Notes: generated by a model from the letters alone, not told the origin. Counted from the stretch's first letter, positions 3,449 to 54,687 are shown. The stretch: DNA of 64,000 nt from Candidatus Sulfomarinibacteraceae bacterium (GCA_963741385.1 CAVUHO010000003.1:134833-198832); one strand, 5' to 3'. Program-made: numbers and translations.

Positions 3449-6400
3449 CTAAGGAGTGGTCAATGACCACATTGTTGTGCCGCCGCTTTCAAATCCATCG
3501 GAGAAGATCAGGTCTCCCTTTCCGAAGAACAGATCGTCGAGCCCAGCCGTGAAGTTCTGGCCGCCCGGCGTCGTGAACCTGAATGCGCAGCGTGCGGAAG
3601 AGGCACCTGCTGTCGTCGTCATCGTATCGGAGACCTCGATCCATGTACCACCCGTGCCACCCATGAGGTCGCTGTTGATCGAATTTCCGAGACCGGTCCC
3701 GGGCGCGCCGCAAAGGGTGGTGGAAAAGAACTCGCAGCTTCTGGAATAGGAGATGAAGCTGGTCGTGGTCAACCGCATCCGACCGACGATGTCGTAGTTC
3801 GTGGAAGGCGTCACTTTGACACACTGGCTGATCTCGAAGAGCGTATTCGCCGCCAGCTGCATGATCTGGGTGGAGCCCGAGATGGTCGAGCCGTCGGCGT
3901 CGTCGGAATCGCGGATGATCTCCACCGGATCTGAAACGCTCCAGCCGTCGAGACCGGTGGACGGGCAGTCGAAGTGGCCGTTTGTGAAATTGTTGAAGGG
4001 ATCGGAGCGGAATGTCCGCAAGAAGTCGTCCCCGGCCGCTCCGTCGCCGGTGCCGTCGAGCGGGTTGCCGGCGATATCGCGGATGGAGGTCGATCCGCAG
4101 ACGAGCAATCGCACCTGCGAGCTCGGGAGGCTGCCGGTAGCGAGTGTGGCGGTGCGGGTGGGTTCGTCATACGACACGGCCGTCAAGTTGACCACCTCAT
4201 CGTCGCCGAGCGGTCCTCCGCACACTGCGGTCGAGAAGTCGCCGTCGGGGCCGGATCCGATCACCAGATAGTTGGCCGGGTTGGTGACATCGTCGCTGTC
4301 GGTGTCACCGGGTGGATCGCGCACGGGTTCGGAGAAGATGACCCGCAGCGAGGTGATTGGCGACAGCACGGTGCGGCACGCCTCGAGTTCGCCGGCGCCC
4401 GGCTCCGCCAGGAGAGAAGTTACGGTCGGCGGCGTGGTGTCGGTGGTGGTTTCCTCGTCGTCGGTGTTGTCCTCGGCATCGAGCTCCGTTTCGGTGGCTG
4501 TCACGCTCGCGGTGTTGGTGATGATCGGCGGTGGATCGGGATTGACCGTCACCGAGATCGTGTACTGCTTCGAACCGCCAGCCGCGAGGGTACCGAGGGT
4601 GCAGGTCGGCACACCGCTCTGGTCCTCGGCGCAACCGGAGGTGGAAACCAGTGTCACCGACGCGGGCAGGGTGTCCGTCACCTCGACGCCGGTGGCGTCG
4701 GAGGGCCCCTGGTTGGTGATCGTCAACGTGTAGACAAGGGTCGCCCCCGGGGACCACGGGTTGGGCGAGCCGGTCTTGTCGAGCACCAGATCGATCTCTC
4801 GGGTCACCGAGGTCAACTCCGAGGCACTGTCGTTTGCCGGCACCGTGTCGGTTTCGTTGACCGCGGTGACGGTGGCGGTGGAGTCGACGACATCGGTGCC
4901 GGAGGCCGTCGAGGCCGAGACCGTGAGGACGACCGTCAGCGTTTCACTGTCGCCTCTGGCGAGGCCACCGAGGGTCCACGTGGGATCTGCAAACGAACCG
5001 CCGCTCGGTGTCACCGAGTCGATGGTGACCCCCGTCGGCAGCGTGAGGGCGGTTGTGATCGTCACGCCCGAGGCATCGGAAGGCCCGTTGTTGGTGGCGG
5101 TCACGACGTAGGTGAGGTTACCCGCTCCGGAGCCCGCCACCACTGGGTCGAAGGACTCCGCGACGGTCACCTCGACATCCACCTCACGCGTCACCGAGGT
5201 GTTCTCCGAAGAGGAGTCGTTTGCGGAGGAGGTGTCGGTTTCGTTGACCGCGGTGATGGTGGCGGTGGAGTCGATGACATTGGTGCCGAAGGCCGCGGAG
5301 TTGTCCACGGTCAGCGTCACCGTCAAGGTTTCGCTTGCGCCCGCCGCGACATAACCGAGGGTCCAGGTGGGGTCCGCAAACGAACCAGCGCTCGGTGTCA
5401 CCGAGTCGACAGTGACCCCCTCGGGCAGGGTCAGGATCTCGGAGAGAGTCACCCCTGAAGCGTCGGATGGGCCGTTGTTGGTCGCGGTCACTGTGTAGAC
5501 CAGGTTGCCGGCGCCGGATCCCGCCACCACCGGGTCAATGGACTCGGTAGTCGAAACCTCGAGATCAACCTCTCGCGAAACCGAGGTGGTTTCGGTCGAG
5601 GTGTCGTTCGCGGTGGAGGTGTCGGTTTCGTTCAACGCCGTCACCGTCGCGGTCGAACCGATCACGTCGCTGCCGGCGACCGTCGAGGAGGCCACGGTGA
5701 GCGTCACCGTCAATGTCTCGCTCGCGCCGCTGGCGAGATCACCGATGGTCCAGGTGGGTCCGGCCCACGAACCGGCCCCGCTGGGCACCACGGAATCAGC
5801 CGAGGCCCCTGCCGGCAGCGTCAGGACCTCTGACACCGTGAGACCGGTCGCGTTGGCCGGTCCGTTGTTGGTGGCGGTCACGGTGTAGACCAGATTGCCG
5901 GCGCCGGATCCCGCCACCACCGGGTCGATCGACCCAGAGGTGGTCAGCTCGATGTCGACCCGGCGTGTCACCGATGTGGCCTCGGTGGCCGAGTTGTTGT
6001 CGGTGTCGGTCTCCGGTTCGTTGACTGCGGTGAGGGTAGCGGTGGTCGAGATGACGTCGGTGCCGGCCGCAGCCGAGCTCTGGACCGAGAGGACCAGCGT
6101 CAGGGTCTCGCTGGCGCCGTTGACCAGATCACCGATGGTCCATGTGGGGTCCGTCCACGTAGTGGCCCCGCTGGGCGTGATCGAGTCGATCGCCACTCCG
6201 GCGGGCAGGGTCAGGATATTGCTCGCCGTGACGCCGGATGCATCGCCGGGACCAATGTTGGTGGCGGTCACCACGTAGGTCAGATTGCCCGCACCGGAAC
6301 CGGCGATGACGGGATCGATGCTTTCGGCGGCGGCAATCTCGATATCCACGTTCCGCGTTACCGATGTGGCGACGGAGGAGGTGTCGTTCGCTGCGTTGGT

Positions 6401-9166
6401 GTCGGTTTCGTTCACAGCTGTTACGGTTGCGGTGGAGCCGATGACGTCGGTGCCGGCGGTCGTCGAGGCAGCCACAGTGAGAGTCACCGTCAATGTCGCG
6501 CTGGCGCCGGCGGCGAGGCTACCGAGGGTCCACGTGGGATCTGCAAACGAACCGCCGCTCGGTGTCACCGAGTCGATGGTGACCCCCGTCGGCAGCGTGA
6601 GGGTCTCTGAGATCGTCAGACCTGAGGCATCGCCCGGTCCCTTGTTGGCGGCGGTCACGGTGTAGACCAGGTTACCGGCACCGGAGCCGGCCATCACCGG
6701 GTCGATCGACTCGGTGGTGGTGAGTTCGATGTCGACCTGGCGTGTCACCGATGTGGCCTCGGTGGCCTCGTTGTTGTCGGTGACGGTCTCCGGCTGGGTG
6801 GTGGCGGTGATTGTGGCCGTGTTGGAGATGACATCGGTGCCGGCTGCCGTGGAGCTCTGCACCGTGAGGACCACGGTGAGGGTTGCGCTGGCGCCGTTGG
6901 CCAGATCACCGACGGTCCAGGTGGACGGAGCTGTCCAAACGGTGCCTGCACTGGGAGTGACCGAGTCCCTTGCCACTCCGGCTGGCAAGGTCAGGACGTT
7001 GCTCACCACGACGCCGGAGGCATCAACGGGACCGTTGTTGGTGGTGGTCACGGTGTAGGTGAGATTGCCTGCTGCGGAGCCGGCGACCACCGGGTCGACG
7101 GAGTCGACGACGGTCACGGCGATGTCGACGATTCTGATGTTGCCGAAAACGAGACCTGTCACGTCGACCCCACTCACAGTCGTGATGTCATGGACCGCGG
7201 GAAGCGTCGTTTGAACGGTGCCCGCCGGTGTGAGTTGGCGAACGAAATACCGTCCACCGCCCACGTTCGAGAAACCGAAAAGGCCTGCGAGGTCGGAGCC
7301 TGTCGAGTCAATTGAAACGTCGTCACCGATCCCGAAGTCCGGTGTGCCGTCGCCACCGTCCCGCCACAACTCGATCGTCACCATCGGAAACGCCGGGTCA
7401 CCGGTTGGGCTGCCGTCTCCGTTGAGGTCTTCGAAGACCAGTCCCGAAATGCTGACGGGTGTGAAGGGCCTGAGACCGGCGTCGATGGAGAGATCTTCGA
7501 TAGTGAAGGTCACATCGGCCTGACCGTCCGCCGGATCGAAGTTGCTGTCGAGTTCGAAGTCGCCGCCCTGTTCCTTGGGCGAAAGCTCGGATTCGGGCGG
7601 AAAACTGACCGTGAGCGTGTAGGAGCCAGGCAGCAGAGCGGGGAAGAGATACCTGCCGTTGACGTCGCTGGTGGTCGAAACACTCACCGACCCGGCGATC
7701 GCGACGGAAACGGCGTGGACACCCGGTTCGCCACCGTCCTGGATGCCGTCACTGTTGGTGTCGCTCCATACGAAGTCCCCAAGGTTGGCGGGAAGGTCTT
7801 CGGCGGCGATGACGCCCGCGGCCACCGTGACGGTTCCGGTGACCACGATTGGCGTACCGGCATTGGTGTTGTCCGCGATCACCGTCGCCGGAACGAACGA
7901 AGCCGAGTTCCCCTGATCCAACTGGACCGTGCTGACGGCCTGATCAATCTGATATGCGGAGGCGCCAGGGGTCTGGACGGTGTTGCCGGAGATGTCGAGG
8001 TCCAACGTGTAGACGCCGTTGTTTGCGTCGGCGTCGATCAGAATGCCCTCGCCAGTCGGGCTGGTGATGGTGTTTCCGGTGAGGACCACCTTCCAGAGAC
8101 CGCCGGAGCCGGTCGACGCGTCCTGTGGTCGCATCCGGATTCCGGCTCCGGAACCGGTGCCTGTGACGGTGTTGGCGTCGATCAGAACGTTGGCGATGAT
8201 GTCTGCGGAGGCCGAACCCCCATCGATGAAGATGCCGTTGTTTCCGGGGGCGGTGATCTGGTTGTTGCGGACGATGACGGACGTGGTCGTGGCGGCGCCC
8301 TCGAGGTCGACGAGGATGGCCTGTGACAGAGGGCTGGTGATCTGGTTGTCTTCAATGGCGATCGATGCGGAGGTGCCGACACTTCCGGTGTCTCCCAGGT
8401 CGACATCGATGGGGCTCCCCGATCCGGCGGCTGCATTGAACGTGTTGTTGATGATCCGACCGAGGATCACCGGCCCTGCCGGGCCGCTCGGCGACTGGAC
8501 GTCGATCTTGATGCCGTCGTCCTGCAGCATCGTAAAGGTGTTGTCCTCTGCGATGAGGTTGATGGACGGTGCGCCGGTGATCTCGATCTCGACCGCGTCC
8601 TGATTATCGGCGGGGGTTTCGAAACTGTTTCCCCGGACCTCGAGGGTGGTGACGGTGGACCCCGATACCGCCATCAGCACGCCAACGCCTCCGTATCCCG
8701 GGCCGAAGGTGTTGTCGAGCACGGTGACGACGCCGTCAATATTGATGAGTGAGAGGACACCGGTGGGAACGCCGGCGTCGGCATCGAGCACAAAACCGCT
8801 GACCGTTATGTTGCCCGCAAAGCCTGTAGCGCGGAACGCCGCACCCATTCCGCCGTCGACGGTGGCGCCCAGCGGGTTGGCTGCACGAATCGTCAGGTCG
8901 CCGACCGTGGGCGTTCCCAACGCGCTGCCCATCAGGCCGAGATCGACGCTCTCGTCGTACGAGCCGTCGTCAACCACGATTTCATCGCCTGGAGAGGCGT
9001 TGTTCACGGCCTCCTGGATCGTTGTGTAATCGTCAGAAACCGAGATCGTTGCGGCCTCTGAAAATGCTGGCAGCACCAGACATACGGCCATGATCGTCAG
9101 CGTCATCGACACACTCCAAATCGGGGGCTGAGGTGTCTTCGCGCATTCGTCGGAGTCGGTCGTCAT
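3449..9166 (-). CDS. Giant secreted surface protein with parallel beta-helix repeats, two SdrD-B/Cna-B-like units, seven DUF11-type repeats and Ig-like plus CBM-like C-terminal modules
   Basis: 1905-aa ORF with signal peptide MTLTIMAVCLVLPAFSEA (alternative start at 9106). It has NNxF/NNQIT beta-helix repeats and GDFVWSDTNSDGIQDGGEPG...NGRYLF...GSYTL. It contains seven units of about 130 aa each, with the core DPV.AGS.AGNL.YTVT..N.GP.DA.GV. The C-terminus is LIFSDGFESGGTTMWSLTTP. Confidence 0.85.
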   Translation of the reverse strand: MTTDSDECAKTPQPPIWSVSMTLTIMAVCLVLPAFSEAATISVSDDYTTIQEAVNNASPGDEIVVDDGSYDESVDLGLMGSALGTPTVGDLTIRAANPLGATVDGGMGAAFRATGFAGNITVSGFVLDADAGVPTGVLSLINIDGVVTVLDNTFGPGYGGVGVLMAVSGSTVTTLEVRGNSFETPADNQDAVEIEITGAPSINLIAEDNTFTMLQDDGIKIDVQSPSGPAGPVILGRIINNTFNAAAGSGSPIDVDLGDTGSVGTSASIAIEDNQITSPLSQAILVDLEGAATTTSVIVRNNQITAPGNNGIFIDGGSASADIIANVLIDANTVTGTGSGAGIRMRPQDASTGSGGLWKVVLTGNTITSPTGEGILIDADANNGVYTLDLDISGNTVQTPGASAYQIDQAVSTVQLDQGNSASFVPATVIADNTNAGTPIVVTGTVTVAAGVIAAEDLPANLGDFVWSDTNSDGIQDGGEPGVHAVSVAIAGSVSVSTTSDVNGRYLFPALLPGSYTLTVSFPPESELSPKEQGGDFELDSNFDPADGQADVTFTIEDLSIDAGLRPFTPVSISGLVFEDLNGDGSPTGDPAFPMVTIELWRDGGDGTPDFGIGDDVSIDSTGSDLAGLFGFSNVGGGRYFVRQLTPAGTVQTTLPAVHDITTVSGVDVTGLVFGNIRIVDIAVTVVDSVDPVVAGSAAGNLTYTVTTTNNGPVDASGVVVSNVLTLPAGVARDSVTPSAGTVWTAPSTWTVGDLANGASATLTVVLTVQSSTAAGTDVISNTATITATTQPETVTDNNEATEATSVTRQVDIELTTTESIDPVMAGSGAGNLVYTVTAANKGPGDASGLTISETLTLPTGVTIDSVTPSGGSFADPTWTLGSLAAGASATLTVTLTVAASTTAGTDVIGSTATVTAVNETDTNAANDTSSVATSVTRNVDIEIAAAESIDPVIAGSGAGNLTYVVTATNIGPGDASGVTASNILTLPAGVAIDSITPSGATTWTDPTWTIGDLVNGASETLTLVLSVQSSAAAGTDVISTTATLTAVNEPETDTDNNSATEATSVTRRVDIELTTSGSIDPVVAGSGAGNLVYTVTATNNGPANATGLTVSEVLTLPAGASADSVVPSGAGSWAGPTWTIGDLASGASETLTVTLTVASSTVAGSDVIGSTATVTALNETDTSTANDTSTETTSVSREVDLEVSTTESIDPVVAGSGAGNLVYTVTATNNGPSDASGVTLSEILTLPEGVTVDSVTPSAGSFADPTWTLGYVAAGASETLTVTLTVDNSAAFGTNVIDSTATITAVNETDTSSANDSSSENTSVTREVDVEVTVAESFDPVVAGSGAGNLTYVVTATNNGPSDASGVTITTALTLPTGVTIDSVTPSGGSFADPTWTLGGLARGDSETLTVVLTVSASTASGTDVVDSTATVTAVNETDTVPANDSASELTSVTREIDLVLDKTGSPNPWSPGATLVYTLTITNQGPSDATGVEVTDTLPASVTLVSTSGCAEDQSGVPTCTLGTLAAGGSKQYTISVTVNPDPPPIITNTASVTATETELDAEDNTDDEETTTDTTPPTVTSLLAEPGAGELEACRTVLSPITSLRVIFSEPVRDPPGDTDSDDVTNPANYLVIGSGPDGDFSTAVCGGPLGDDEVVNLTAVSYDEPTRTATLATGSLPSSQVRLLVCGSTSIRDIAGNPLDGTGDGAAGDDFLRTFRSDPFNNFTNGHFDCPSTGLDGWSVSDPVEIIRDSDDADGSTISGSTQIMQLAANTLFEISQCVKVTPSTNYDIVGRMRLTTTSFISYSRSCEFFSTTLCGAPGTGLGNSINSDLMGGTGGTWIEVSDTMTTTAGASSARCAFRFTTPGGQNFTAGLDDLFFGKGDLIFSDGFESGGTTMWSLTTP
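4400..7125. repeat. Intragenic tandem repeat of about 390 bp x7 (DUF11 units of the giant protein)
   Basis: The plus-strand shadow ORFs recur every 390 bp (5505, 5895, 6285). The protein repeat is 130 aa. Six units are highly similar and the seventh (about 4400-4790) is more diverged. Boundaries are approximate. Confidence 0.75.
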
Positions 9167-18944: not shown

Positions 18945-20477
18945 ATGAAAACGTCAATCGCGCTGGTGCTTTCGTTCTCGTTGGTCGTGTTCGCCGGGTC
19001 GTCTGCGACCATCGCTCGAAGCGAGGACACCGCCGGCGGGGAAAAGACCGCAAAGGCTGAGATTCCGGCTGCCAAGGTCTTTCAATCCGACCACCAACTC
19101 GCGGTCGGCGGCCGAACCGTCAACTACACGGCGACCGCCGGGACCATGTTGATGAAGGACGACGCCGGCAAGCCGGTGGCCCTCTTCGGCTATACGGCTT
19201 ACATCGAGAAGGGGGCCGACCCGGCCAAACGCCCGATCCTCTTCGCCTACAACGGGGGCCCGGGCTCGGCGTCCGTCTGGCTGCACATGGGCATTCTCGG
19301 TCCGCAGCGGGTCGTCGTGACCGATGCCGGTTTCACGCCCCCCGGCCCCTTCAAACGCGTGGCGAACGAGTTCAGCATTCTCGATGTGGCCGACCTCGTG
19401 ATGATCGATCCGGTCGGAACGGGCTACTCGAAGCCGGTGGGCGAGGCCGAGGGCAAGGACTTCTGGGGCGTCGACCAGGACATCAAATCGGTCTCCGCCT
19501 TCATCGCCCAGTACGTCACGCAGAACGGCCGCTGGGCCTCGCCCAAGTACCTGCTCGGCGAGAGCTACGGCGGGATGCGCTCCGGAGGCGTCGCCTACCG
19601 CCTCCTCACCACCCACAACCTGGCGCTCAACGGCGTCATCCTGGTGTCCCCCTATCTGGATTTCGTGGCCGGCACCGCCGGTCTCCAGGTCGACCTGCCG
19701 TACGTGCTCTTCTTCAGCGCGTACGCGGCGACCGCCTGGTACCACGACGTTGTCCCGGACAAGCCTGACGACCTCCTGGCCTTTCTCGCGGCGGCAGAGG
19801 ATTTCGCCGAGACGGTGTACGCCCCGGCCCTCTTCAAGGGCAACAGTCTTCCCCAGGCGGAACGCGCGAAGGTGCTCGCCGGGATGACGCGCTTCACCGG
19901 GATAGAAGAGGAGTACTGGGACCGGGCCAATCTCCGCATCGACGAGATGCACTTCTCGAAGGAGCTGCTGCGCCGGCGCAAGGAAACGGCCGGGCGCGCC
20001 GACTCCCGATTCAAGGGAGAGAGCATCAACCTGCTCGCCGAGCGCTTCACCTACGACCCCTTCAACTCATCGGTGGGCCCGGCATTCGCAGCCGCCTTCA
20101 ACGACTACTATCGGGCCGATCTGGGCGTCGACTTCGAGCAGGACTACGTCGTCTCCGGTGAGCTCTGGAAGAAATGGGATGAAACGCACGACCAACCCGA
20201 CGGCGGCGCGTGGGGCAAAGTCCCATTCGCCAACACGGCCATCGACCTGACCTACGCCATGGTGCAGAACCCCAACATGAGGGTGCTCGTCAACCAGGGC
20301 TACTTCGATCTCGCGACGCCGTTCGGGGTCACCAACTACGTCATCGACCACATGAAATTGAGCCCCGAGCTGCAGAAGAACCTCGTGATCGAGTACTACC
20401 GAGCGGGACACATGATGTACATCCACCCCCCCTCGATGGCGAAGTTCAGGGAAACCCTGGCGAACTTCATCGAGTGA
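18945..20477 (+). CDS. Peptidase S10 family serine carboxypeptidase
   Basis: ATG at 18945 after GAGGAGG. Signal peptide [22 protein letters not shown]10 signatures [18 protein letters not shown] and the nucleophile motif GESYGG. Confidence 0.85.
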
Positions 20478-37195: not shown

Positions 37196-37198
37196 AAA

Positions 37199-38342
37199 TA
37201 AAAGTGCCATAAAAGTGCCATAAAAGTGCCAGTAAAAGTGCCAGGTACGGTGGTTATGATGTTATAATGTCCTTACCTCAATTGGTGGAGATGGGGGATG
37301 GGGCGTCGACCGCGGATACTTTTGCCTGGTGGTATTTACCACGTGTACAACCGGACGTCCCGTGGCGAGGACGTTTTCCGTGAGGACGAAGAGGCCGATC
37401 GGCTCGAGGGCCTCATCTCTGCGACGAAGGCGCGAGACGACTTCCAGATCCTCGCCTGGTGCATCATGTCGAATCACTACCACCTCGCGGTGCGGATGGG
37501 AGAGGTCCCATTGTCACGATCGATGCGAACGATCCACCATAGGTTCGCACAGAGCTTCAACGGTCGGCACCGCGTCTTCGGTCCGTTCTGGCAGGGCCGT
37601 TTCCGGTCGAAGTTCGTGGGCGACGACGAGTATGTGAGACGGCTCATCGCATACATCCATCTCAATCCGGTGACCGCCGGAATCGTGAGAGATGCGGCGC
37701 AGTATCGGTGGTGTGGGCACCGCGAGGTGGTCGGTAGGGCGGCGGGACGTCGTCTGGTCGATGTCAACGAGACGCTGATGTCGTATCACCCGAAGCGAAG
37801 GGATGCGCTGGCGGGGTACCGCGAGGCGATGTCATCGACGCTGGCTGAGGAATGGCGGTCGGAAGGCCCGGGGCACCTTCCCTGGTGGAAGGTCGGTCGC
37901 CCGAAGGGTGGCGATGACGAGCGGGAGATCGAGGTCGACGAGGCGAAGCCTCGGATCCAGATGAACGGGCGGAGCAACGTCGAGATGAGGCCGAGAATGG
38001 AGATCGCCAGGTTCATCGAATTGGGTGCGGACGCCTGTGGCGTTATGGCAGCCGACTTGAGGAGCAACAGGCGGGGATCGCCGGTGGTGGAGGCGCGAGA
38101 GATCCTGGCCTGGCTTGGGACAATACTGTACGGGTTCAAGGTCAAAGAGATCGCGGCAGGATTCGACAAGTACGGAGAGACGGCGAGTCGATTGGTGAGC
38201 AGAGCGGCGCGGCGTAGGATGGACGATGTGGGCTTCGCGGACCGGATCCAAAGCGTCGATTCCGCGATCACGAAGGGGGCGACTGGGGTCGAGAAAAAAT
38301 AACATCATAACCACCGTACCTGGTACCTTTTTGGTACCTTTT
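37199..38342 (+). mobile_element. RAYT-type (IS200/IS605-like Y1) transposase unit with perfect 23-bp inverted repeats and 11-bp subterminal tandem repeats
   Basis: Left IR CCAGGTACGGTGGTTATGATGTT (37241..37263) is the exact reverse complement of 38301..38323. Outside the IRs there are four copies of TAAAAGTGCCA on the left (37199..37243) and two of TGGTACCTTTT on the right (38321..38342). Confidence 0.8.
37298..38302 (+). CDS. REP-associated tyrosine transposase-like protein (Y1/HUH) with a C-terminal DnaA-C-like HTH domain
   Basis: 334-aa ORF with GGIYHVYNRTSRGEDVF, the HUH motif SNHYHLAV, FWQGRF and the catalytic Tyr region AYIHLNP. The C-terminal segment REILAWLGTILYGFKVKEIAAGFDKYGETASRLVSRA resembles the DnaA domain IV HTH. 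Confidence 0.8.
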   Translation: MGRRPRILLPGGIYHVYNRTSRGEDVFREDEEADRLEGLISATKARDDFQILAWCIMSNHYHLAVRMGEVPLSRSMRTIHHRFAQSFNGRHRVFGPFWQGRFRSKFVGDDEYVRRLIAYIHLNPVTAGIVRDAAQYRWCGHREVVGRAAGRRLVDVNETLMSYHPKRRDALAGYREAMSSTLAEEWRSEGPGHLPWWKVGRPKGGDDEREIEVDEAKPRIQMNGRSNVEMRPRMEIARFIELGADACGVMAADLRSNRRGSPVVEAREILAWLGTILYGFKVKEIAAGFDKYGETASRLVSRAARRRMDDVGFADRIQSVDSAITKGATGVEKK

Positions 38343-40153: not shown

Positions 40154-40241
<88 letters not shown>

Positions 40242-40650: not shown

Positions 40651-40820
40651 CGATTTCGGATTTCGGATTTCGGATTTCGGATTTGCGCCCGCCCACCCGG
40701 CAGCCGGGACGGCTGCCCCACAATTCCCCCGGCAGAACAAATTGGTTTGTGGGGCACGCGTCTCGCGTGCCGGGCGGGCGGTCGGGAATTCAAAATTCAG
40801 AATTCAAAATTGAGAATTGA
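40651..40820. repeat. Composite structured intergenic repeat, copy I (GGATTTC heptamer arm, GC-rich double-hairpin core, GAATTCAAAATT-type arm)
   Basis: (GATTTCG)x4.7 at 40651..40685. Core with GGCAGCC-GGGAC-GGCTGCC + CCCACAA ... TTTGTGGGG + CACGCG-TCT-CGCGTG. AT-rich 7-nt-period arm at 40786..40820. Confidence 0.8.
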
Positions 40821-43085: not shown

Positions 43086-43107
43086 CAATTCGCGGCAGCG
43101 AATTGCC

Positions 43108-43152
43108 TTGACAAACGTTCCGGTGCGACATAGTTTACAAAACGAACGTTCG
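43108..43152 (+). promoter_or_regulatory. Candidate sigma-70 promoter plus palindromic operator upstream of the TetR gene
   Basis: TTGACA (43108..43113), 17 bp, TAGTTT (43131..43136). Perfect 10-bp palindrome CGAACGTTCG at 43143..43152, with a related AAACGTTCC half-site at 43113..43121. The TetR ATG is at 43163. Confidence 0.5.
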
Positions 43153-43162
43153 GTTTTTATAA

Positions 43163-46134: not shown

Positions 46135-46145
46135 GTTTTTCCCAA

Positions 46146-46176
46146 GGGGGCGCCGGAGCCGGCGCCCCCTGTTTTC
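46146..46176 (+). terminator. Rho-independent terminator
   Basis: GGGGGCGCCGG-ag-CCGGCGCCCCC followed by TGTTTTC, 12 nt after the receptor stop. Confidence 0.75.
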
Positions 46177-46252: not shown

Positions 46253-47038
46253 ATGATCGAAACTGGACTCAAGAACAAGGTTGTCATCGTCACCGGCGCG
46301 GCGGCCGGGATCGGGCGCGCAACCGCTGAGCGGTTTGCCGCCGAGGGGTGCAAGGTCGCGGCGTGGGATGTGAACGAGGCAGTGTCGCACGAGGTGGTGG
46401 CGGCACTCGAGGCCGCCGGTGGGAAGGGCATCTTCCAGAAGGTGAACGTCGCCAACGTGGGCGAGGTGGAAGCTGCGGTCGCGGATGTCGTGGATCGTTG
46501 GGGTTCGGTCTCGGTGCTGGTCAACAACGCCGGCATCGTGCGCGACAGCCAGTTGGTCAAGTACAAGGACGGCGCGGTTCAATCGACCATGACCGACGAG
46601 GCGTGGGATGCGGTGATCGGAGTCAACCTCAAGGGCGTGTTCAACTGCACGCGGGCGGTGGTGCCGCACTTGATCGCCGGCGGCCAGGGCGGCGTGGTCC
46701 TCAACGCCTCGTCGGTGGCCTGCCTCAACGGCAACTTCGGCCAGACCAACTACGTGGCCACCAAGGCCGGCGTCATCGGCATGACCAAGACCTGGGCGCG
46801 TGAACTGGGCAAGTTCGGGATCCGGGTCAACGCGGTGGCCCCGGGCTTCGTCAAGACCGAAATCATCAACGCCATGCCGCAGAAGGTCATCGAATCCATG
46901 GTGGCGCACACGCCGATGGGGCGCATCGGTGACACGAAAGACATCGCCGAGGCGTACGTGTGGTTGGCGTCCGATGCGGCGAACTGGGTGACGGGGACGG
47001 TCTTGTCGGTGGATGGTGGGTTGGTGATCGGGACGTGA
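46253..47038 (+). CDS. Short-chain dehydrogenase/reductase, 3-oxoacyl-ACP reductase (FabG)-like
   Basis: ATG at 46253 after GGAGGAG. TGAAAGIG cofactor motif, NNAG, and the S...YxxxK pattern (NYVATKAG). Confidence 0.85.
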   Translation: MIETGLKNKVVIVTGAAAGIGRATAERFAAEGCKVAAWDVNEAVSHEVVAALEAAGGKGIFQKVNVANVGEVEAAVADVVDRWGSVSVLVNNAGIVRDSQLVKYKDGAVQSTMTDEAWDAVIGVNLKGVFNCTRAVVPHLIAGGQGGVVLNASSVACLNGNFGQTNYVATKAGVIGMTKTWARELGKFGIRVNAVAPGFVKTEIINAMPQKVIESMVAHTPMGRIGDTKDIAEAYVWLASDAANWVTGTVLSVDGGLVIGT

Positions 47039-47175
47039 ATTTCGGATTTCGGATTTCGGATTTCGGATTTCGGATTGGCCACCCAACCACCCGGCACGCG
47101 GGACGCGTGACCCACAAGGCTTCTGATCCGGTTTGTGGGGCAGCCGTCCCGGCTGCCATTCCGCTGGGTGGATTG
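47038..47175. repeat. Composite structured intergenic repeat, copy II (heptamer arm plus core in inverted orientation, no AT arm)
   Basis: (ATTTCGG)x5 at 47038..47076. The core carries the CACGCG hairpin first and GGCAGCC-GTCCC-GGCTGCC second, i.e. the reverse complement of the copy I core. Confidence 0.8.
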
Positions 47176-48199: not shown

Positions 48200-48300
48200 A
48201 AAATTCTGAATTTTGAATTTTTAATTTTGAATTGCGGACACGCAACCGTTCTCTGGCCGGGTGGCCGTGAATTCAAAATTCATAATTCAAAATTTAAAAC
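48200..48300. repeat. Composite structured intergenic repeat, copy III (inverted AT-rich arms around a short GC core)
   Basis: AAAATTCTGAATTTTGAATTTTTAATTTTGAATTG ... GAATTCAAAATTCATAATTCAAAATTTAAAAC. The arms are mutually inverted. Confidence 0.75.
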
Positions 48301-48327
48301 TCGCGATGATCGGTTCGGGGGCTGAAG

Positions 48328-49293
48328 ATGGGCAGGAAGTTGCTGAAGATTCTCATGGTTATCGGAGTTTTGGTCGTCGTTGCGATCATCGCGTGCGTGT
48401 GGATGGTGTGGAAACGGCCGCTCACCGTGGATGCGATGTTCAGCCGCATGGCGCTCGGCAGGATCGGGTTCGAGAAGACGACCGTCGCCATCCCGGAAGG
48501 CAGGATGACGGTGTGGGTCGGCGGTGAGGGGCCCTGCATGGTGCTGTTGCACGGCGCGGGCGACCAGGCTGGCGCCTGGGCGCGGATGGCGGCGCCCCTG
48601 CTGGACGACCACCGGGTCGTCATTCCGGATCTCCCGGGCCACTGGAAGAGCGATCCGCGGAGCGGGCCGCTCGGTATCGGCCAGGTTCTCGGGGGGCTCG
48701 AGGCGGTGATGGAGACCACCTGCGCGGGAGAGAACGCGATTCTGGTGGGCAACTCGATGGGGGCATGGATCTCGATGCTCTACGCCGTCGAACACCCGGA
48801 CCGCGTCGAGCGTTTGGTGGCGATCAACGGCGGCGCGATCCGCGAGGACAACCCGCAAGTGAACCTCTTCCCGACGAGCCGCGAGGAGGCGCGCGCGACC
48901 TTGAAGGCGCTGATGGGCCCGGCGACGCCGCCGGTGCCCGACTTCGTGCTCGACGACGTCATCCGCCACGCGCGGGTCGGTCCGGCGGGCCGGCTGGCGC
49001 TGACCGCCGGTGACATGGGCCGCTATCTCCTCGACGGCAGGCTCGACGAGGTGACGGTGCCGGTGGAGCTGGTGTGGGGTGACGCCGACGGGTTGTTGAC
49101 CCTCGATTACGCACAACGGCTGCTGGACGGATTGCCGCGGGCGCGGCTGTACCCGGTGCACGGCTGCGGCCACGTCCCCGAGCGCGAATGCCCCGACAAG
49201 ACCCTCGAGGTCATGGAGACGGCCCTGGCGATGGCGCCGGTCGAAACCGCCGTCGTCGAGGAGCCGCCGACCGAGGAGGAGGCAACACCGTGA
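48328..49293 (+). CDS. Alpha/beta hydrolase with N-terminal membrane anchor
   Basis: 321-aa ORF. TM LKILMVIGVLVVVAIIACVWMV. HG oxyanion motif VLLHGAGD. Nucleophile elbow GNSMG. GCGHVP near the C-terminus. Confidence 0.85.
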   Translation: MGRKLLKILMVIGVLVVVAIIACVWMVWKRPLTVDAMFSRMALGRIGFEKTTVAIPEGRMTVWVGGEGPCMVLLHGAGDQAGAWARMAAPLLDDHRVVIPDLPGHWKSDPRSGPLGIGQVLGGLEAVMETTCAGENAILVGNSMGAWISMLYAVEHPDRVERLVAINGGAIREDNPQVNLFPTSREEARATLKALMGPATPPVPDFVLDDVIRHARVGPAGRLALTAGDMGRYLLDGRLDEVTVPVELVWGDADGLLTLDYAQRLLDGLPRARLYPVHGCGHVPERECPDKTLEVMETALAMAPVETAVVEEPPTEEEATP

Positions 49294-50828
49294 TCTGCGG
49301 CGACATCATCGGCGAACGCAGCCGCCTGTCTCCCGACCGCACGGCGGTGGTTGACGTGGCCAGCGGCCGCCGCCTGACCTACCGCGAGATGAACTCGCGG
49401 GCGGCTCACTGCGCCCGGACCTGGCTCTACGGTCTCGGGCTCAAACGGGGCGACCGCATCGGCATCCTGGCCGGCAACCGCCTCGAGTTTCTCGACGCCT
49501 TTTTCGCCGCCGGCAAGTCGGGCGTGATTCTGGTGCCGTTGGGGACGCGGCTGACGGCGGCGGAGCTGGCGGTGATCGCCGCCGATTGTGGTCTTTCGGC
49601 ACTGGTCTTCGGCGACGATCACGCGGACACCGTGCGGGAGCTGGCCGGTCGCGGCGACGTCGGCCGTCTGGTGGCGTTGGATGAAGGTGCCGGGATCGGT
49701 GCTGCATCGTGGAAAGAGTTGAAAGACAGGGTGGGGGAGGGCGATCACGTGCCCTCGGTGTGCTCGCCGGACGACCCCTACTGCCTGCTCTACACTTCGG
49801 GGACCACCGGCCGGCCCAAGGGCGTGATCACACCGCACCGCATGGTGGCATGGAATGCCTACAACACGGTTGTGTGTTGGCAGCTGACCGAGAACGACGT
49901 CAGCCCGATCTTCACACCGCTCTACCACGCAGGAGGACTGGGCGCCTTTTTGACGCCGATCCTGCTGGCCGGAGGGACCATCCTGCTCCACCGGCAGTTC
50001 GACCCGACCGAGGTGTGGCGGGTCATCGAGTCGGAAGGTTGCACGGTGGTGCTGGGCGTGCCCACGATCTGGAAGATGCTGGCCGAGGCCCCCGAGTTTG
50101 AAAACGCCGACCTCAGCCGGGTTCGCTGGTTCATCTCCGGCGGCGCACCGTTACCGCGCCATCTGGTCCAGACCTTTCGCGATCGCGGTGTTGTGCTGAG
50201 GCAGGGCTACGGTCTGACCGAAGTCGGGGTGAACTGTTTCTCGATGACCGACGAGGAGGCCTGGCTCAAGGCGGGCTCGATCGGCAAGCCGCTGATGTTC
50301 ACCGAAGCGCGGGTGATGGACCCCGACGGCAGGGAAAAGCCGCCCGACGAGGTCGGTGAGCTGTGCTTCCGCGGGCCGCACGTCAGCGCCGGCTACTGGA
50401 ACAACCCACAGGCGACCGCCGAAGCCCGCGACAAGGACGGCTGGTTCCACACCGGCGACATGGCGTGCCGTGATGCCGACGGGTTCTACTCCATCGCCGG
50501 CCGCGCCAAGGACATGTTCATCTCGGGCGGGGTCAACGTCTATCCGGCCGAGATCGAAAATGCGCTGCTCCAACATCCCGCGGTGTCCGACGTGGCGGTT
50601 GCCGGGGTGCCGCACGATGTGTGGGGAGAGATCGGCGTTGCCTTCGTGGTGCCGGTGGCCGGCGGCGACGCCGTAACGCCGGAAGCGATGGCCGAATACC
50701 TTGGCGCCCGGCTCGCGCGCTACAAGATCCCACGCCAGTTCCACCTGCTCGAGGAGTTACCCCGCACGGCCTACGGCAAAGTGGTGAAGGGAGAGCTTGT
50801 GGAGTGGTGGAAGAAACGGAACCAATGA
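49290..50828 (+). CDS. AMP-dependent acyl-CoA synthetase/ligase
   Basis: GTG at 49290 (GTGA overlap with the upstream stop, GAGGAGGAGG RBS). AMP-binding motif LLYTSGTTGRPKGV, plus GYGLTE, TGDMA and the C-terminal YGKVVK. Confidence 0.88.
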   Translation: MICGDIIGERSRLSPDRTAVVDVASGRRLTYREMNSRAAHCARTWLYGLGLKRGDRIGILAGNRLEFLDAFFAAGKSGVILVPLGTRLTAAELAVIAADCGLSALVFGDDHADTVRELAGRGDVGRLVALDEGAGIGAASWKELKDRVGEGDHVPSVCSPDDPYCLLYTSGTTGRPKGVITPHRMVAWNAYNTVVCWQLTENDVSPIFTPLYHAGGLGAFLTPILLAGGTILLHRQFDPTEVWRVIESEGCTVVLGVPTIWKMLAEAPEFENADLSRVRWFISGGAPLPRHLVQTFRDRGVVLRQGYGLTEVGVNCFSMTDEEAWLKAGSIGKPLMFTEARVMDPDGREKPPDEVGELCFRGPHVSAGYWNNPQATAEARDKDGWFHTGDMACRDADGFYSIAGRAKDMFISGGVNVYPAEIENALLQHPAVSDVAVAGVPHDVWGEIGVAFVVPVAGGDAVTPEAMAEYLGARLARYKIPRQFHLLEELPRTAYGKVVKGELVEWWKKRNQ

Positions 50829-50921
50829 AAATTTCGGATTTCGGATTTCGGATTTCGGATGTGACCCCCACCCACCCGGTGACCCGGATTGTTCGTGAGG
50901 GCGGGCGGGAAATCCGAAATC
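50828..50921. repeat. Composite structured intergenic repeat, copy IV (inverted GGATTTC-type arms)
   Basis: (ATTTCGG)x4 at 50828..50860, a GC-rich core (CCCACCCACCCGG ... GAGGGCGGGCGGG), and GAAATCCGAAATC at 50909..50921. Confidence 0.75.
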
Positions 50922-50952
50922 TAAAGAGCCTATTACTTCAAAAGGAGTCTCG

Positions 50953-52170: not shown

Positions 52171-52283
52171 CTCAATTTTGAATTATGAATTATGAATTTT
52201 GAATTCCCATCACACTACCAATCCGCATCGAAGATTGGGGCTGCGTCCGAAATTCAAAATTGAGAATTCAAAATTAAGAATTA
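52171..52283. repeat. Composite structured intergenic repeat, copy V (inverted AT-rich arms)
   Basis: CTCAATTTTGAATTATGAATTATGAATTTTGAATTC ... AAATTCAAAATTGAGAATTCAAAATTAAGAATTA. The arms are mutually inverted around a core of about 43 bp. Confidence 0.75.
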
Positions 52284-53981: not shown

Positions 53982-53993
53982 AGCCACGCTCCA

Positions 53994-54551
53994 GATCCCT
54001 CCGCTCGGTCGCTGCGCTCCCTCGGTCGGGATGACAGTGAGAGAGGACGTTCGCCCTTCGGTCCGGAAGTCGCTCTCAAAATGTCATTCCGACCGAGGGA
54101 GCGCCAACGACCCTCCCCAATGTCATTCCGACCGAGGAAGCGCCAACGACCGCTCCTCGTGTCATTCCGACCGAGGGAGCGCCAACGACCGCCCCTATGT
54201 CATTCCGACCGAGGGAGCGCCAACGACCGCCTCTCTTGTCATTCCGACCGAGGGAGCGCCAACGACCCTCCCCTATGTCATTCCGACCGCGGGAGAGCCC
54301 ACGACCCCTTCCCTGTGTCATTCCGACCGACGGAGCGCCAACGACAGCCCCTCTTGTCATTCCGACCGACGGAGCGCCAACGACCGCCTCTCTTGTCATT
54401 CCGACCGACGGAGAGCCAACGACCGCCTCTCTTGTCATTCCGACCGACGGAGAGCCAACGACACCCCTCTTGTCATTCCGACCGACGGAGAGCCAACGAC
54501 ACCCCCCTTGTCATTCCGACCGAGGGAGCGCAGCGACCGAGTGGAGGAATC
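53994..54551. repeat. Tandem array (12 copies, 38-40-bp period) bracketed by inverted 42-bp elements
   Basis: Units GTCATTCCGACCGAGGGAGCGCCAACGACC + 8-10 variable nt start at 54083, 54122, 54161, 54199, 54238, 54277, 54317, 54356, 54395, 54434, 54472 and 54510. 53994..54035 matches the reverse complement of 54510..54551 at 39 of 42 positions. Confidence 0.85.
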
Positions 54552-54687
54552 TCGGCGGATGAGCGAGCATGCTCCCGGGCCCCCTCATGGCAGCCGGGAC
54601 GGCTGCCTCACAAGGCGCCGGCGGCTTTGGAACACGCGTCCCCTGTGGCGCGGCTCCTTTGCCCCCGGAGGGCCGTTCTCTGCAATA

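Follow-up and report, generated by a model that had tools for sequence, protein, structure and literature searches.

The repeats in the intergenic spacers of the window (the whole 64,000-nt stretch of DNA analysed) probably represent two superimposed kinds of repeat, a hairpin scaffold built of heptamer arrays and a REPIN seated at its tip, which together would form a hairpin in intercistronic mRNA. The identity of the parts, a REPIN core with heptamer-array arms, is very likely to be correct. REPINs and heptamer arrays are each known; what is new is a REPIN family in Thermoanaerobaculales embedded in heptamer-array hairpins, a combination for which we found no description in the literature. 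In the mechanism proposed here, a U-rich array, a (CCCR)n clamp, a GC-rich apex, a (YGGG)n clamp and an A-rich array would make up a long imperfect hairpin, the arms of which would remain complementary, or nearly so, as the unit sequence drifts. The REPIN, comprising two inverted REP units of two variants, occupies the apex in copies I and II, with a decayed singlet left at 54589; we propose that REPINs settle at the tip of the hairpin because insertions are tolerated there or because it is a target. The spacer, presumably transcribed as part of the operon mRNA, would give a stable, non-terminating stem-loop that may serve as a 3' exonuclease barrier for the upstream cistron, as a 5' hairpin for the downstream cistron and possibly as a substrate for RNase III/E.

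Setting and anatomy of the intergenic repeats

The window has a G+C content of ~63%, and its host lineage, judged by sequence similarity, is Thermoanaerobaculales (Acidobacteriota): RNase R homologues share 75–95% identity, and one member of the cluster is named Thermoanaerobaculales bacterium. An earlier note had proposed a structured, strictly intergenic repeat family with five copies and a core fragment. All of these were found in place (Table 1), far above chance, and the elements are real, structured and intergenic, every repeat-bearing spacer being flanked by + strand ORFs with Pfam domains. According to Pfam, the gene order is an 83-aa ORF and RNase R, then SDR, KAS-III, hydrolase, AMP-ligase, thiolase-like and hydrolase genes, with co-directional flanking genes around elements II–V. 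In copies I–V, the heptamer arrays begin 0–13 nt past the upstream stop codon and the right arms end shortly before the next ribosome-binding site. In every relative examined, the arrays are concentrated in the RNase R/lipid gene cluster. A tRNA-Leu (CAG) gene is located at 40155–40241 on the - strand, ~400 nt upstream of copy I; a partial match to the REP-tail pattern at 40168 was rejected, as it is only the T-arm of this tRNA.

Table 1. Features of the repeat-bearing spacers, in positions of the window
Feature	Coordinates	Strand	Remark
Five copies (I–V)	40651..40820, 47038..47175, 48200..48300, 50828..50921, 52171..52283		plus core fragment at ~54588..54650
Copy I left arm, (GGATTTC) array of ~5 units	40651..40685	+	6 nt past stop codon of 83-aa ORF
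Copy I left GC clamp, CGCCCGCCCACCC	40686..40698	+	pairs with 40772–40785; from fold and flank consensus
Copy I REP unit, variant A, GGCAGCCGGGACGGCTGCCCCACAA	40699..40723	+	
REPIN I spacer, 23 nt	40724..40746	.	non-conserved
Copy I REP unit, variant B, GGCACGCGAGACGCGTGCCCCACAA read on - strand	40747..40771	-	
Copy I right GC clamp, GGGCGGGCGGTCGG	40772..40785	+	
Copy I right arm, GAATTCA/AAATTCA array	40786..40820	+	ends 24 nt before RNase R start codon
Copy II arm, (GGATTTC) array of 5.4 units	47037..47076	+	overlaps TGA stop codon of SDR gene
Copy II left GC clamp, GGCCACCCAACCACCC	47077..47092	+	
Copy II REP unit, variant B	47093..47117	+	one mismatch to unit pattern
Copy II REP unit, variant A, inverted	47133..47157	-	
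Copy II right clamp, ATTCCGCTGGGTGG	47158..47171	+	
Copy III left arm, (GAATTTT/TAATTTT) array	48202..48234	+	
Copy III GC-rich apex	48235..48268	.	without REP unit
Copy III right arm, (AAAATTC) array	48269..48301	+	complementary to copy III left arm
Copy IV left arm, (GGATTTC) array of ~4 units	50829..50863	+	2 nt past TGA of AMP-ligase gene
Copy IV apex, (CCCR)n ... (YGGG)n clamps	50864..50907	.	without REP unit
Copy IV right arm, GAAATCCGAAATCT	50908..50922	+	two inverted units
Copy V left arm, (TGAATTT/TGAATTA) array	52172..52206	+	
Copy V apex	52207..52249	.	without REP unit
Copy V right arm, (AAATTCA/GAATTGA) array	52250..52283	+	abuts AGGAGG ribosome-binding site of next gene
REP singlet, variant A	54589..54613	+	one mismatch
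Period-7 arrays (Tandem Repeats Finder)	40652-40684, 40786-40818, 47039-47076, 48202-48233, 48270-48299, 50831-50860, 52174-52205, 52258-52283		

In copy I, variant B is inverted relative to unit A, so that the tails face each other. In copy II, variant B comes forward and is followed by an inverted variant A; REPIN II is thus B+A, the reverse complement of REPIN I. The core flip described in the earlier note is therefore genuine, with a GTCCC loop instead of GGGAC and the hairpin order swapped, and it is a two-variant inverted doublet (A+B versus B+A) sitting either way round. No right-hand heptamer array is present at the 3' side of the right clamp of copy II. The REP singlet at 54589 is followed at ~54620–54650 by its decayed partner. 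Directly upstream of this singlet there is a 39-nt tandem array of 11.8 copies (54082–54538; TGTCATTCCGACCGAGGGAGCGCCAACGACC plus 7–8 variable bases), with an inverted partial copy at 53993–54036, and motifs related to GGAATGACA adjoin REP units in some metagenome contigs.

The REPIN core and its transposases

The GC-rich hairpin GGCAGCC-GGGAC-GGCTGCC (GGCAGCCGGGACGGCTGCC) occurs at 40699 (+), 47139 (-) and 54589 (+), with 0.11 matches expected, and hairpins of the form CACGCG-N3-CGCGTG are found at 40755 and 47095. Both are variants of one 25-nt unit, GGCA-NNN-GGGAC-NNN-TGCC-CCACAA, an imperfect palindrome with a 7-bp stem and a GGGAC loop, of which the window holds five, all intergenic. In copies I and II, two inverted REP units make up the core, which is a doublet of the REPIN/BIME type. 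The statement that no REP/BIME/MITE class fits was consequently wrong for the core, which is an inverted heterotypic REP doublet with cognate RayT genes that have the same units on their flanks.

Further copies, which the earlier note had proposed to look for, were plentiful: two scans of public collections, one of metagenomes with the degenerate REP unit and one of genomes with (GGATTTC)3 (L001–L120), each returned at least 120 loci. The fetched loci contain 244 REP units with at most two mismatches. Compensatory changes in the hairpins, another check that had been suggested, were also found, since the REP stem covaries: the variable triplets are Watson-Crick in 157 of the 164 exact units from the fetched loci, which fall into at least six variants (GCC/GGC 73, GGC/GCC 58, CGC/GCG 17, AGC/GCT 7 and others), and the arms at site III covary too. 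Doublets are mostly inverted, with 73 in the +/- arrangement with facing tails, 10 in the -/+ arrangement and 18 direct. The gaps of the inverted doublets are mostly 10–26 nt long and 63 of 66 doublet spacers are distinct, while 47 of the 66 doublets are heterotypic, most of them the same A+B pair as in the window. The neighbours of REP doublets, in metagenome contigs numbering in the hundreds, are unrelated genes. The order of array, clamp, REP, spacer, REP, clamp and array recurs in many metagenome contigs, and an array lies on at least one side of 21 out of 61 doublets, leaving 40 with none on either side. Some such composites have non-complementary arms; at L136, for example, the left arm is made of GGATTTC and the right arm of AACGTT. 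The outer clamps form 6.77 Watson-Crick pairs of 14, compared with 6.05 ± 0.21 for permuted partners, which amounts to only modest covariation beyond the consensus.

REPINs are non-autonomous elements moved by a RayT (Y1/HUH) transposase. We searched for RayT genes using an approximate sequence of E. coli YafM as bait and verified all matches with Pfam and NCBIfam models. At L243, a 207-aa ORF scored 83.7 bits against NF047646 (REP-associated tyrosine transposase; cutoff 80) and carries HVH and Y..NP motifs, with the same REP units on both flanks; its homologues are named 'REP element-mobilizing transposase RayT' by JGI. Homologues with 73–74% identity in two further genomic contexts (L247-249 and L251-253) are flanked by the REP units of the core, and the units on the flanks of a 62% homologue are of a co-varied REP variant. 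The REPINs flanking RayT have CCCRCCC/GGGYGGG clamps and no arrays. Considering that these REPINs are array-less and that copies III–V are REP-less, the two kinds of repeat are separable, though associated. The earlier claim of a single composite family did not hold, as copies I and II and the fragment share nearly the same REP units but not the same arrays and clamps, and copies III–V lack REP units altogether. The link to a cognate RayT was made on metagenome contigs outside the window; no cognate RayT was found within the window itself or on any contig established to be of the same genome. By this association only, the REPINs are presumably mobilized by RayT.

The window does encode one RAYT-like gene, at 37298–38302 (+), which matches Pfam Y1_Tnp (E = 1.2e-11) and the NCBIfam REP-associated tyrosine transposase model (88.9 bits, cutoff 80) and has a weak DnaA_C-like HTH tail. 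A perfect 22-nt inverted repeat (37244–37265 and 38299–38320) borders the gene, and outside it lie 11-mer tandem arrays, ATAAAAGTGCC x4 at 37198–37243 and TGGTACCTTTT x2 at 38321–38342, and the orthologue of the gene in L245 (2000–2971) has a flanking inverted repeat of 26 nt. This locus is a second, different RAYT system, the inverted repeats of which are likewise extended by tandem arrays. It was rejected as the mobilizer of the core, given that its flanking repeats are different and that it shares no more than 25% identity with the cognate RayT.

The properties of the core and its transposases set out above are those that define REPIN-RAYT systems (PMC3337134, PMC3116915). REP dimers sit in host palindromes and fold separately or as one large stem-loop, and heterodimers are known (PMC3733652). 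The core resembles REPINs and BIMEs in its short imperfect palindromes, in its inverted doublets with a variable spacer and in two-hairpin or one-hairpin folding, and E. coli BIMEs in forming heterodimers of two unit variants, as with Y/Z REPs. It also shares with REPINs an extragenic and probably multi-copy distribution, RayT genes flanked by the same units and presence or absence at orthologous positions. In contrast to described REPINs, the family belongs to a lineage that is new for such elements (Thermoanaerobaculales, Acidobacteriota), the unit ends in the tail CCCCACAA instead of the canonical GTAG tag, and the host palindrome is made of simple-sequence arrays. Neither a GTAG nor a CGTC tag (PMC3733652) is present in the REP unit, where the other strand of the tail reads TTGTGG, giving GTGG. 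With its defined unit and cognate transposase, this family extends the range of REPIN-RayT systems to an uncultured lineage of Acidobacteriota.

Heptamer arrays and their turnover among relatives

All eight of the period-7 arrays that Tandem Repeats Finder detected in the window fall between 40.6 and 52.3 kb. The (GGATTTC)2 pattern GGATTTCGGATTTC gave 14 matches with at most two mismatches (0.37 expected), and the AT-rich 14-mer GAATTCAAAATTCA gave 19 with at most three (1.65 expected). The arms are thus heptamer arrays, as had been noted earlier, with the amendment that for the AT-rich ones, in which GAATTCA and AAATTCA alternate, a period of 14 nt gives the better fit (94% versus 80% for 7 nt). 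Units are reused within the genome, GGATTTC at copies I, II and IV and RAATTCA at copies I, III and V. In the window and its syntenic loci taken together there are 48 arrays of period 7, 18 of period 6 and at most 4 for periods 8–12. A period-7 array lies within 75 nt of 47 out of 234 REP units, compared with 2.2% of background windows (~9-fold enrichment), in loci that were fetched through the REP pattern and so were not selected for arrays. The commonest unit among these arrays is GGATTTC.

Among the matches listed, arrays of (GGATTTC)3 or more come from many phyla, including Acidobacteriota, Verrucomicrobiota, Planctomycetota, Chloroflexota, Bacteroidota and Patescibacteria, and numerous further heptamer arrays are present in these loci. 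In one MAG, JAFDVJ01 ('Acidobacteria bacterium SZAS-13'), arrays occupy at least 13 loci among the matches listed, often as inverted pairs 55–75 nt apart around a recurring core of its own. Megablast of the window against the listed (GGATTTC)3 genome loci returned nothing beyond array-sized matches, and no report of GGATTTC arrays in bacteria was found in the literature.

In the aligned genes, six syntenic loci (L121–L124, L245 and L246) are 74–87% identical to the window at the nucleotide level. All seven genomes, the most distant of which has an RNase R identity of 75%, have arrays in the same five or six spacers, with other units at orthologous spacers (GGAATTC, AGGAATT/G, AACGTTR, GAGTTTT, GAAATTC and a single instance of a 10-mer). 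Sites I and II are occupied by REPINs in the window, L121, L123 and L124; L122 and L245 lack them and retain the clamps at these sites, and L246 has neither REPIN. After RNase R, where the window has nothing of the kind, L121 and L122 carry an array and one REP unit. The arrays found right after the RNase R stop codon in relatives are (AACGTTR)n, at 4823–4860 in L121, 5788–5861 in L122, where the REP unit comes after the array, and 12242–12265 in L123, and a similar array with a degraded REP-like stretch is found at 8378–8440 in L121.

Site III reads GAATTTT/AAAATTC in the window and GAGTTTT/AAAACTC in the relatives. In its consensus fold, 12 of 39 pairs show compensatory change, among them a switch from G-C to A-U that recurs at one position in successive units. 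L246, the most distant relative, has at its counterpart of the copy II site an inverted pair of arrays with a period of ~10 nt (19938–20036; CCCGCTCCCGTT... / ...GGGAGCGGGATCGGG) and a predicted fold of -61 kcal/mol (z ~ -6); here the hairpin is kept and the period has changed.

Simple sequence repeats grow and are homogenized by slippage, and the arms are heptanucleotide microsatellites that presumably arose in this way. They fall into a known class, that of intergenic heptamer arrays (STRR/LSSR; PMC2670836, PMC4679880). STRRs are 7-bp repeats forming intergenic hairpins that may stabilize transcripts or couple translation (PMC2670836), and intergenic heptanucleotide LSSRs were treated by Mrazek 2007, in the summary given in PMC4679880. 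The arrays described here resemble both in being intergenic 7-nt tandem arrays, often intra-operonic and hairpin-forming, with few preferred units per genome, and in lying beside start codons; for STRRs, a role in transcript stability or translational coupling has been proposed. They differ in occurring in Thermoanaerobaculales with units of their own (GGATTTC, RAATTCA and others), which are not those of the cyanobacterial STRR1-3 families, and in their inverted arms around GC clamps, their onset at stop codons and their significant association with REPINs. The TAACTGA heptamer repeats (PMC4679880) have Beggiatoaceae as hosts, whereas the present arrays are found in Acidobacteriota with other units. 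Heptamer arrays, a puzzle in cyanobacteria and Beggiatoaceae, are thus present in Acidobacteriota as well, and the same unit occurs in many phyla. Considering that GGATTTC arrays are stop-free in all frames and can extend ORF calls, such spacers should be annotated as repeats; repeats of this type may also break assemblies.

Folding, gene layout and competing explanations

Copy I is predicted to fold into a single long hairpin (-100.8 kcal/mol, z = -5.3), the minus strand being 15 kcal/mol less stable than the + strand. In the + strand RNA, its right arm would pair with the GGAUUUC array via G.U wobbles, and arm-arm hairpins are predicted for copies III–V. The mutually inverted arms reported earlier for copies III–V do therefore pair as hairpins, with the correction that those of copy I pair too. 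The cruciform or four-way junction suggested in the same note is a possible fold for copies I and II, but it is one of two that compete, and the minimum-free-energy structure of copy I is the long hairpin. Many orthologous spacers reach z ≤ -3. The preference for one strand in folding is weak, with the + strand giving the more stable structure in 20 of 29 spacers, which are non-independent and have more G than C on that strand.

Relative to genes, in counts restricted to GC3-validated ORFs and to arrays within 15 nt of the stop codon, arrays just past a stop codon tend to be T-rich on the sense strand, both in the REP-fetched loci (21 versus 5, p = 0.0025) and in the genome loci (34 versus 14, p = 0.0055). 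Arrays of the GGATTTC unit follow a stop codon in this orientation 49 times against 20 in the opposite one. Shortly before start codons, A-rich arrays are the more frequent (28 versus 13 in one set, 11 versus 8 in the other). In the window, the arrays are T-rich after the stop in 4/4 cases and A-rich before the start in 4/4. The resulting order of U-rich arm, GC hairpin and A-rich arm is the mirror image of an intrinsic terminator. Like Rho-independent terminators, the elements are GC-rich intergenic stem-loops flanked by A/T-rich tracts; unlike them, they have the U-rich tract on the 5' side, the A-rich tract on the 3' side and no T-run after the stem. In a paired element, this succession of T-rich and A-rich arms reads alike on either strand, and what it shows is the avoidance of a terminator configuration, not the usefulness of a hairpin.

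A reading of the elements as intrinsic terminators was rejected, since a consensus scan gave no stem-loop with a T-run at any of them, and a promoter reading was rejected likewise, the AT-rich arms giving no sigma-70-like matches. The only clean terminator between 40 and 55 kb is at 46145–46170, 3' of the TonB-receptor gene, where it closes the TetR/TonB-receptor unit. With neither terminator nor promoter motifs in the elements, II–V would lie inside one putative operon with no termination signal. Upstream of the TetR gene, a palindrome (CAATTCGCGGCAGCGAATTG) and a conserved TTGACA...TTACAAAACGAACGTTCGGTTTTTA stretch at 43086–43162 are common to all relatives and are likely to be an operator and promoter.

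What the hairpins do, if transcribed, can be suggested by analogy with REP/BIME and STRR hairpins, and on that ground we tentatively propose a role in intercistronic processing, stability or insulation. Neutral or selfish persistence is the main rival, and the readings of the repeats as a MITE, as protein-binding sites or as a structured RNA are each less well supported. According to the main rival, REPINs spread by RayT and arrays grown by slippage are tolerated in spacers and the hairpin is a product of DNA mechanics. This would account for the presence and absence of REPINs at orthologous sites, for the complete turnover of array units between genomes at 82–87% nucleotide identity, for spacer sequences that are not conserved and for the lack of a strong folding strand preference, and it agrees with the argument of Bertels and Rainey that REP functions are incidental (PMC3337134). 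We nevertheless think it rather unlikely, as each of the seven genomes has kept arrays in these five or six spacers, the arrays precisely fill the interval between the stop codon and the ribosome-binding site, the layout is biased away from the terminator configuration and both arms show compensatory change. It should be noted that, instead of selection, a process at the DNA level (palindrome-templated repair or conversion, for instance) could keep the arms complementary. A bolder extension of the favoured hairpin reading, to which we give little credence, is that the arrays are maintained 'zipper' hairpins in several phyla, with the U-rich arm by the stop codon and the A-rich arm by the ribosome-binding site, sometimes paired through G.U alone in the sense RNA, that set the relative expression of operon genes and serve as preferred landing pads for RayT-REPINs. 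The co-changing complementary arms, the onset at stop codons and the anti-terminator layout offer testable handles on why 7-nt arrays persist in operons.

That the arrays are protein-binding sites, bound as DNA by a nucleoid protein or regulator or as RNA by CsrA-like proteins at GGA, S1 or cold-shock proteins so as to regulate the operon, is improbable. The reuse of a unit at several loci of one genome, with GGA every 7 nt, and the spread of (GGATTTC)3 over genomes of many phyla among the matches listed are in line with such binding, and similar proposals have been made for the TAACTGA repeats (PMC4679880), but no candidate binding protein was identified and the unit at a given site varies among close relatives (GGATTTC, GGAATTC, AGGAATT, AACGTTG, GAGTTTT). 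Such changes of unit, with period and position unaltered, speak against a fixed recognition sequence. We consider it very unlikely that the whole transposes together as a single composite unit of the MITE type, with the arrays as terminal inverted repeats, despite the ~9-fold enrichment of arrays beside REP units and the identical part order recurring across many metagenome contigs: the REP units of copies I and II and of the fragment differ by only 0–1 nt but have different clamps and arrays around them, 40/61 doublets have no array, RayT-flanking REPINs are clamped but array-less, and the array hairpins of copies III–V are REP-less, with no target-site duplication visible. The elements are small, non-coding, palindromic and multi-copy as MITEs are, but they have no conserved terminal inverted repeats and no target-site duplications, and their arms vary independently of the core. 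Hardly credible, finally, is a core that acts as a structured cis-regulatory or non-coding RNA, folded into a four-way junction that has a ligand or a protein as its specific partner. The predicted folds are stable and heterotypic doublets could adopt such a junction; against this, the core is found in both orientations relative to genes, its spacer or loop is not conserved (63/66 distinct), the neighbouring genes are unrelated, the units flank transposases and there was no Rfam match at E up to 1.

The Rfam search, also suggested in the earlier note, returned only tRNA in the gathering scan and nothing relevant between 40300 and 55000 with E up to 1. A sub-threshold match to the GA-cis RNA at 49211–49293 (+) (31.5 bits versus a gathering cutoff of 34.7, E = 0.0025), in the overlap of the hydrolase and AMP-ligase ORFs, is probably due to chance. 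Elsewhere in the window, a 387-nt tandem repeat with 5.4 copies and 70% matches (4845–6924) lies in a 1905-aa ORF on the - strand (3449–9166), where it probably encodes a repeated protein domain.
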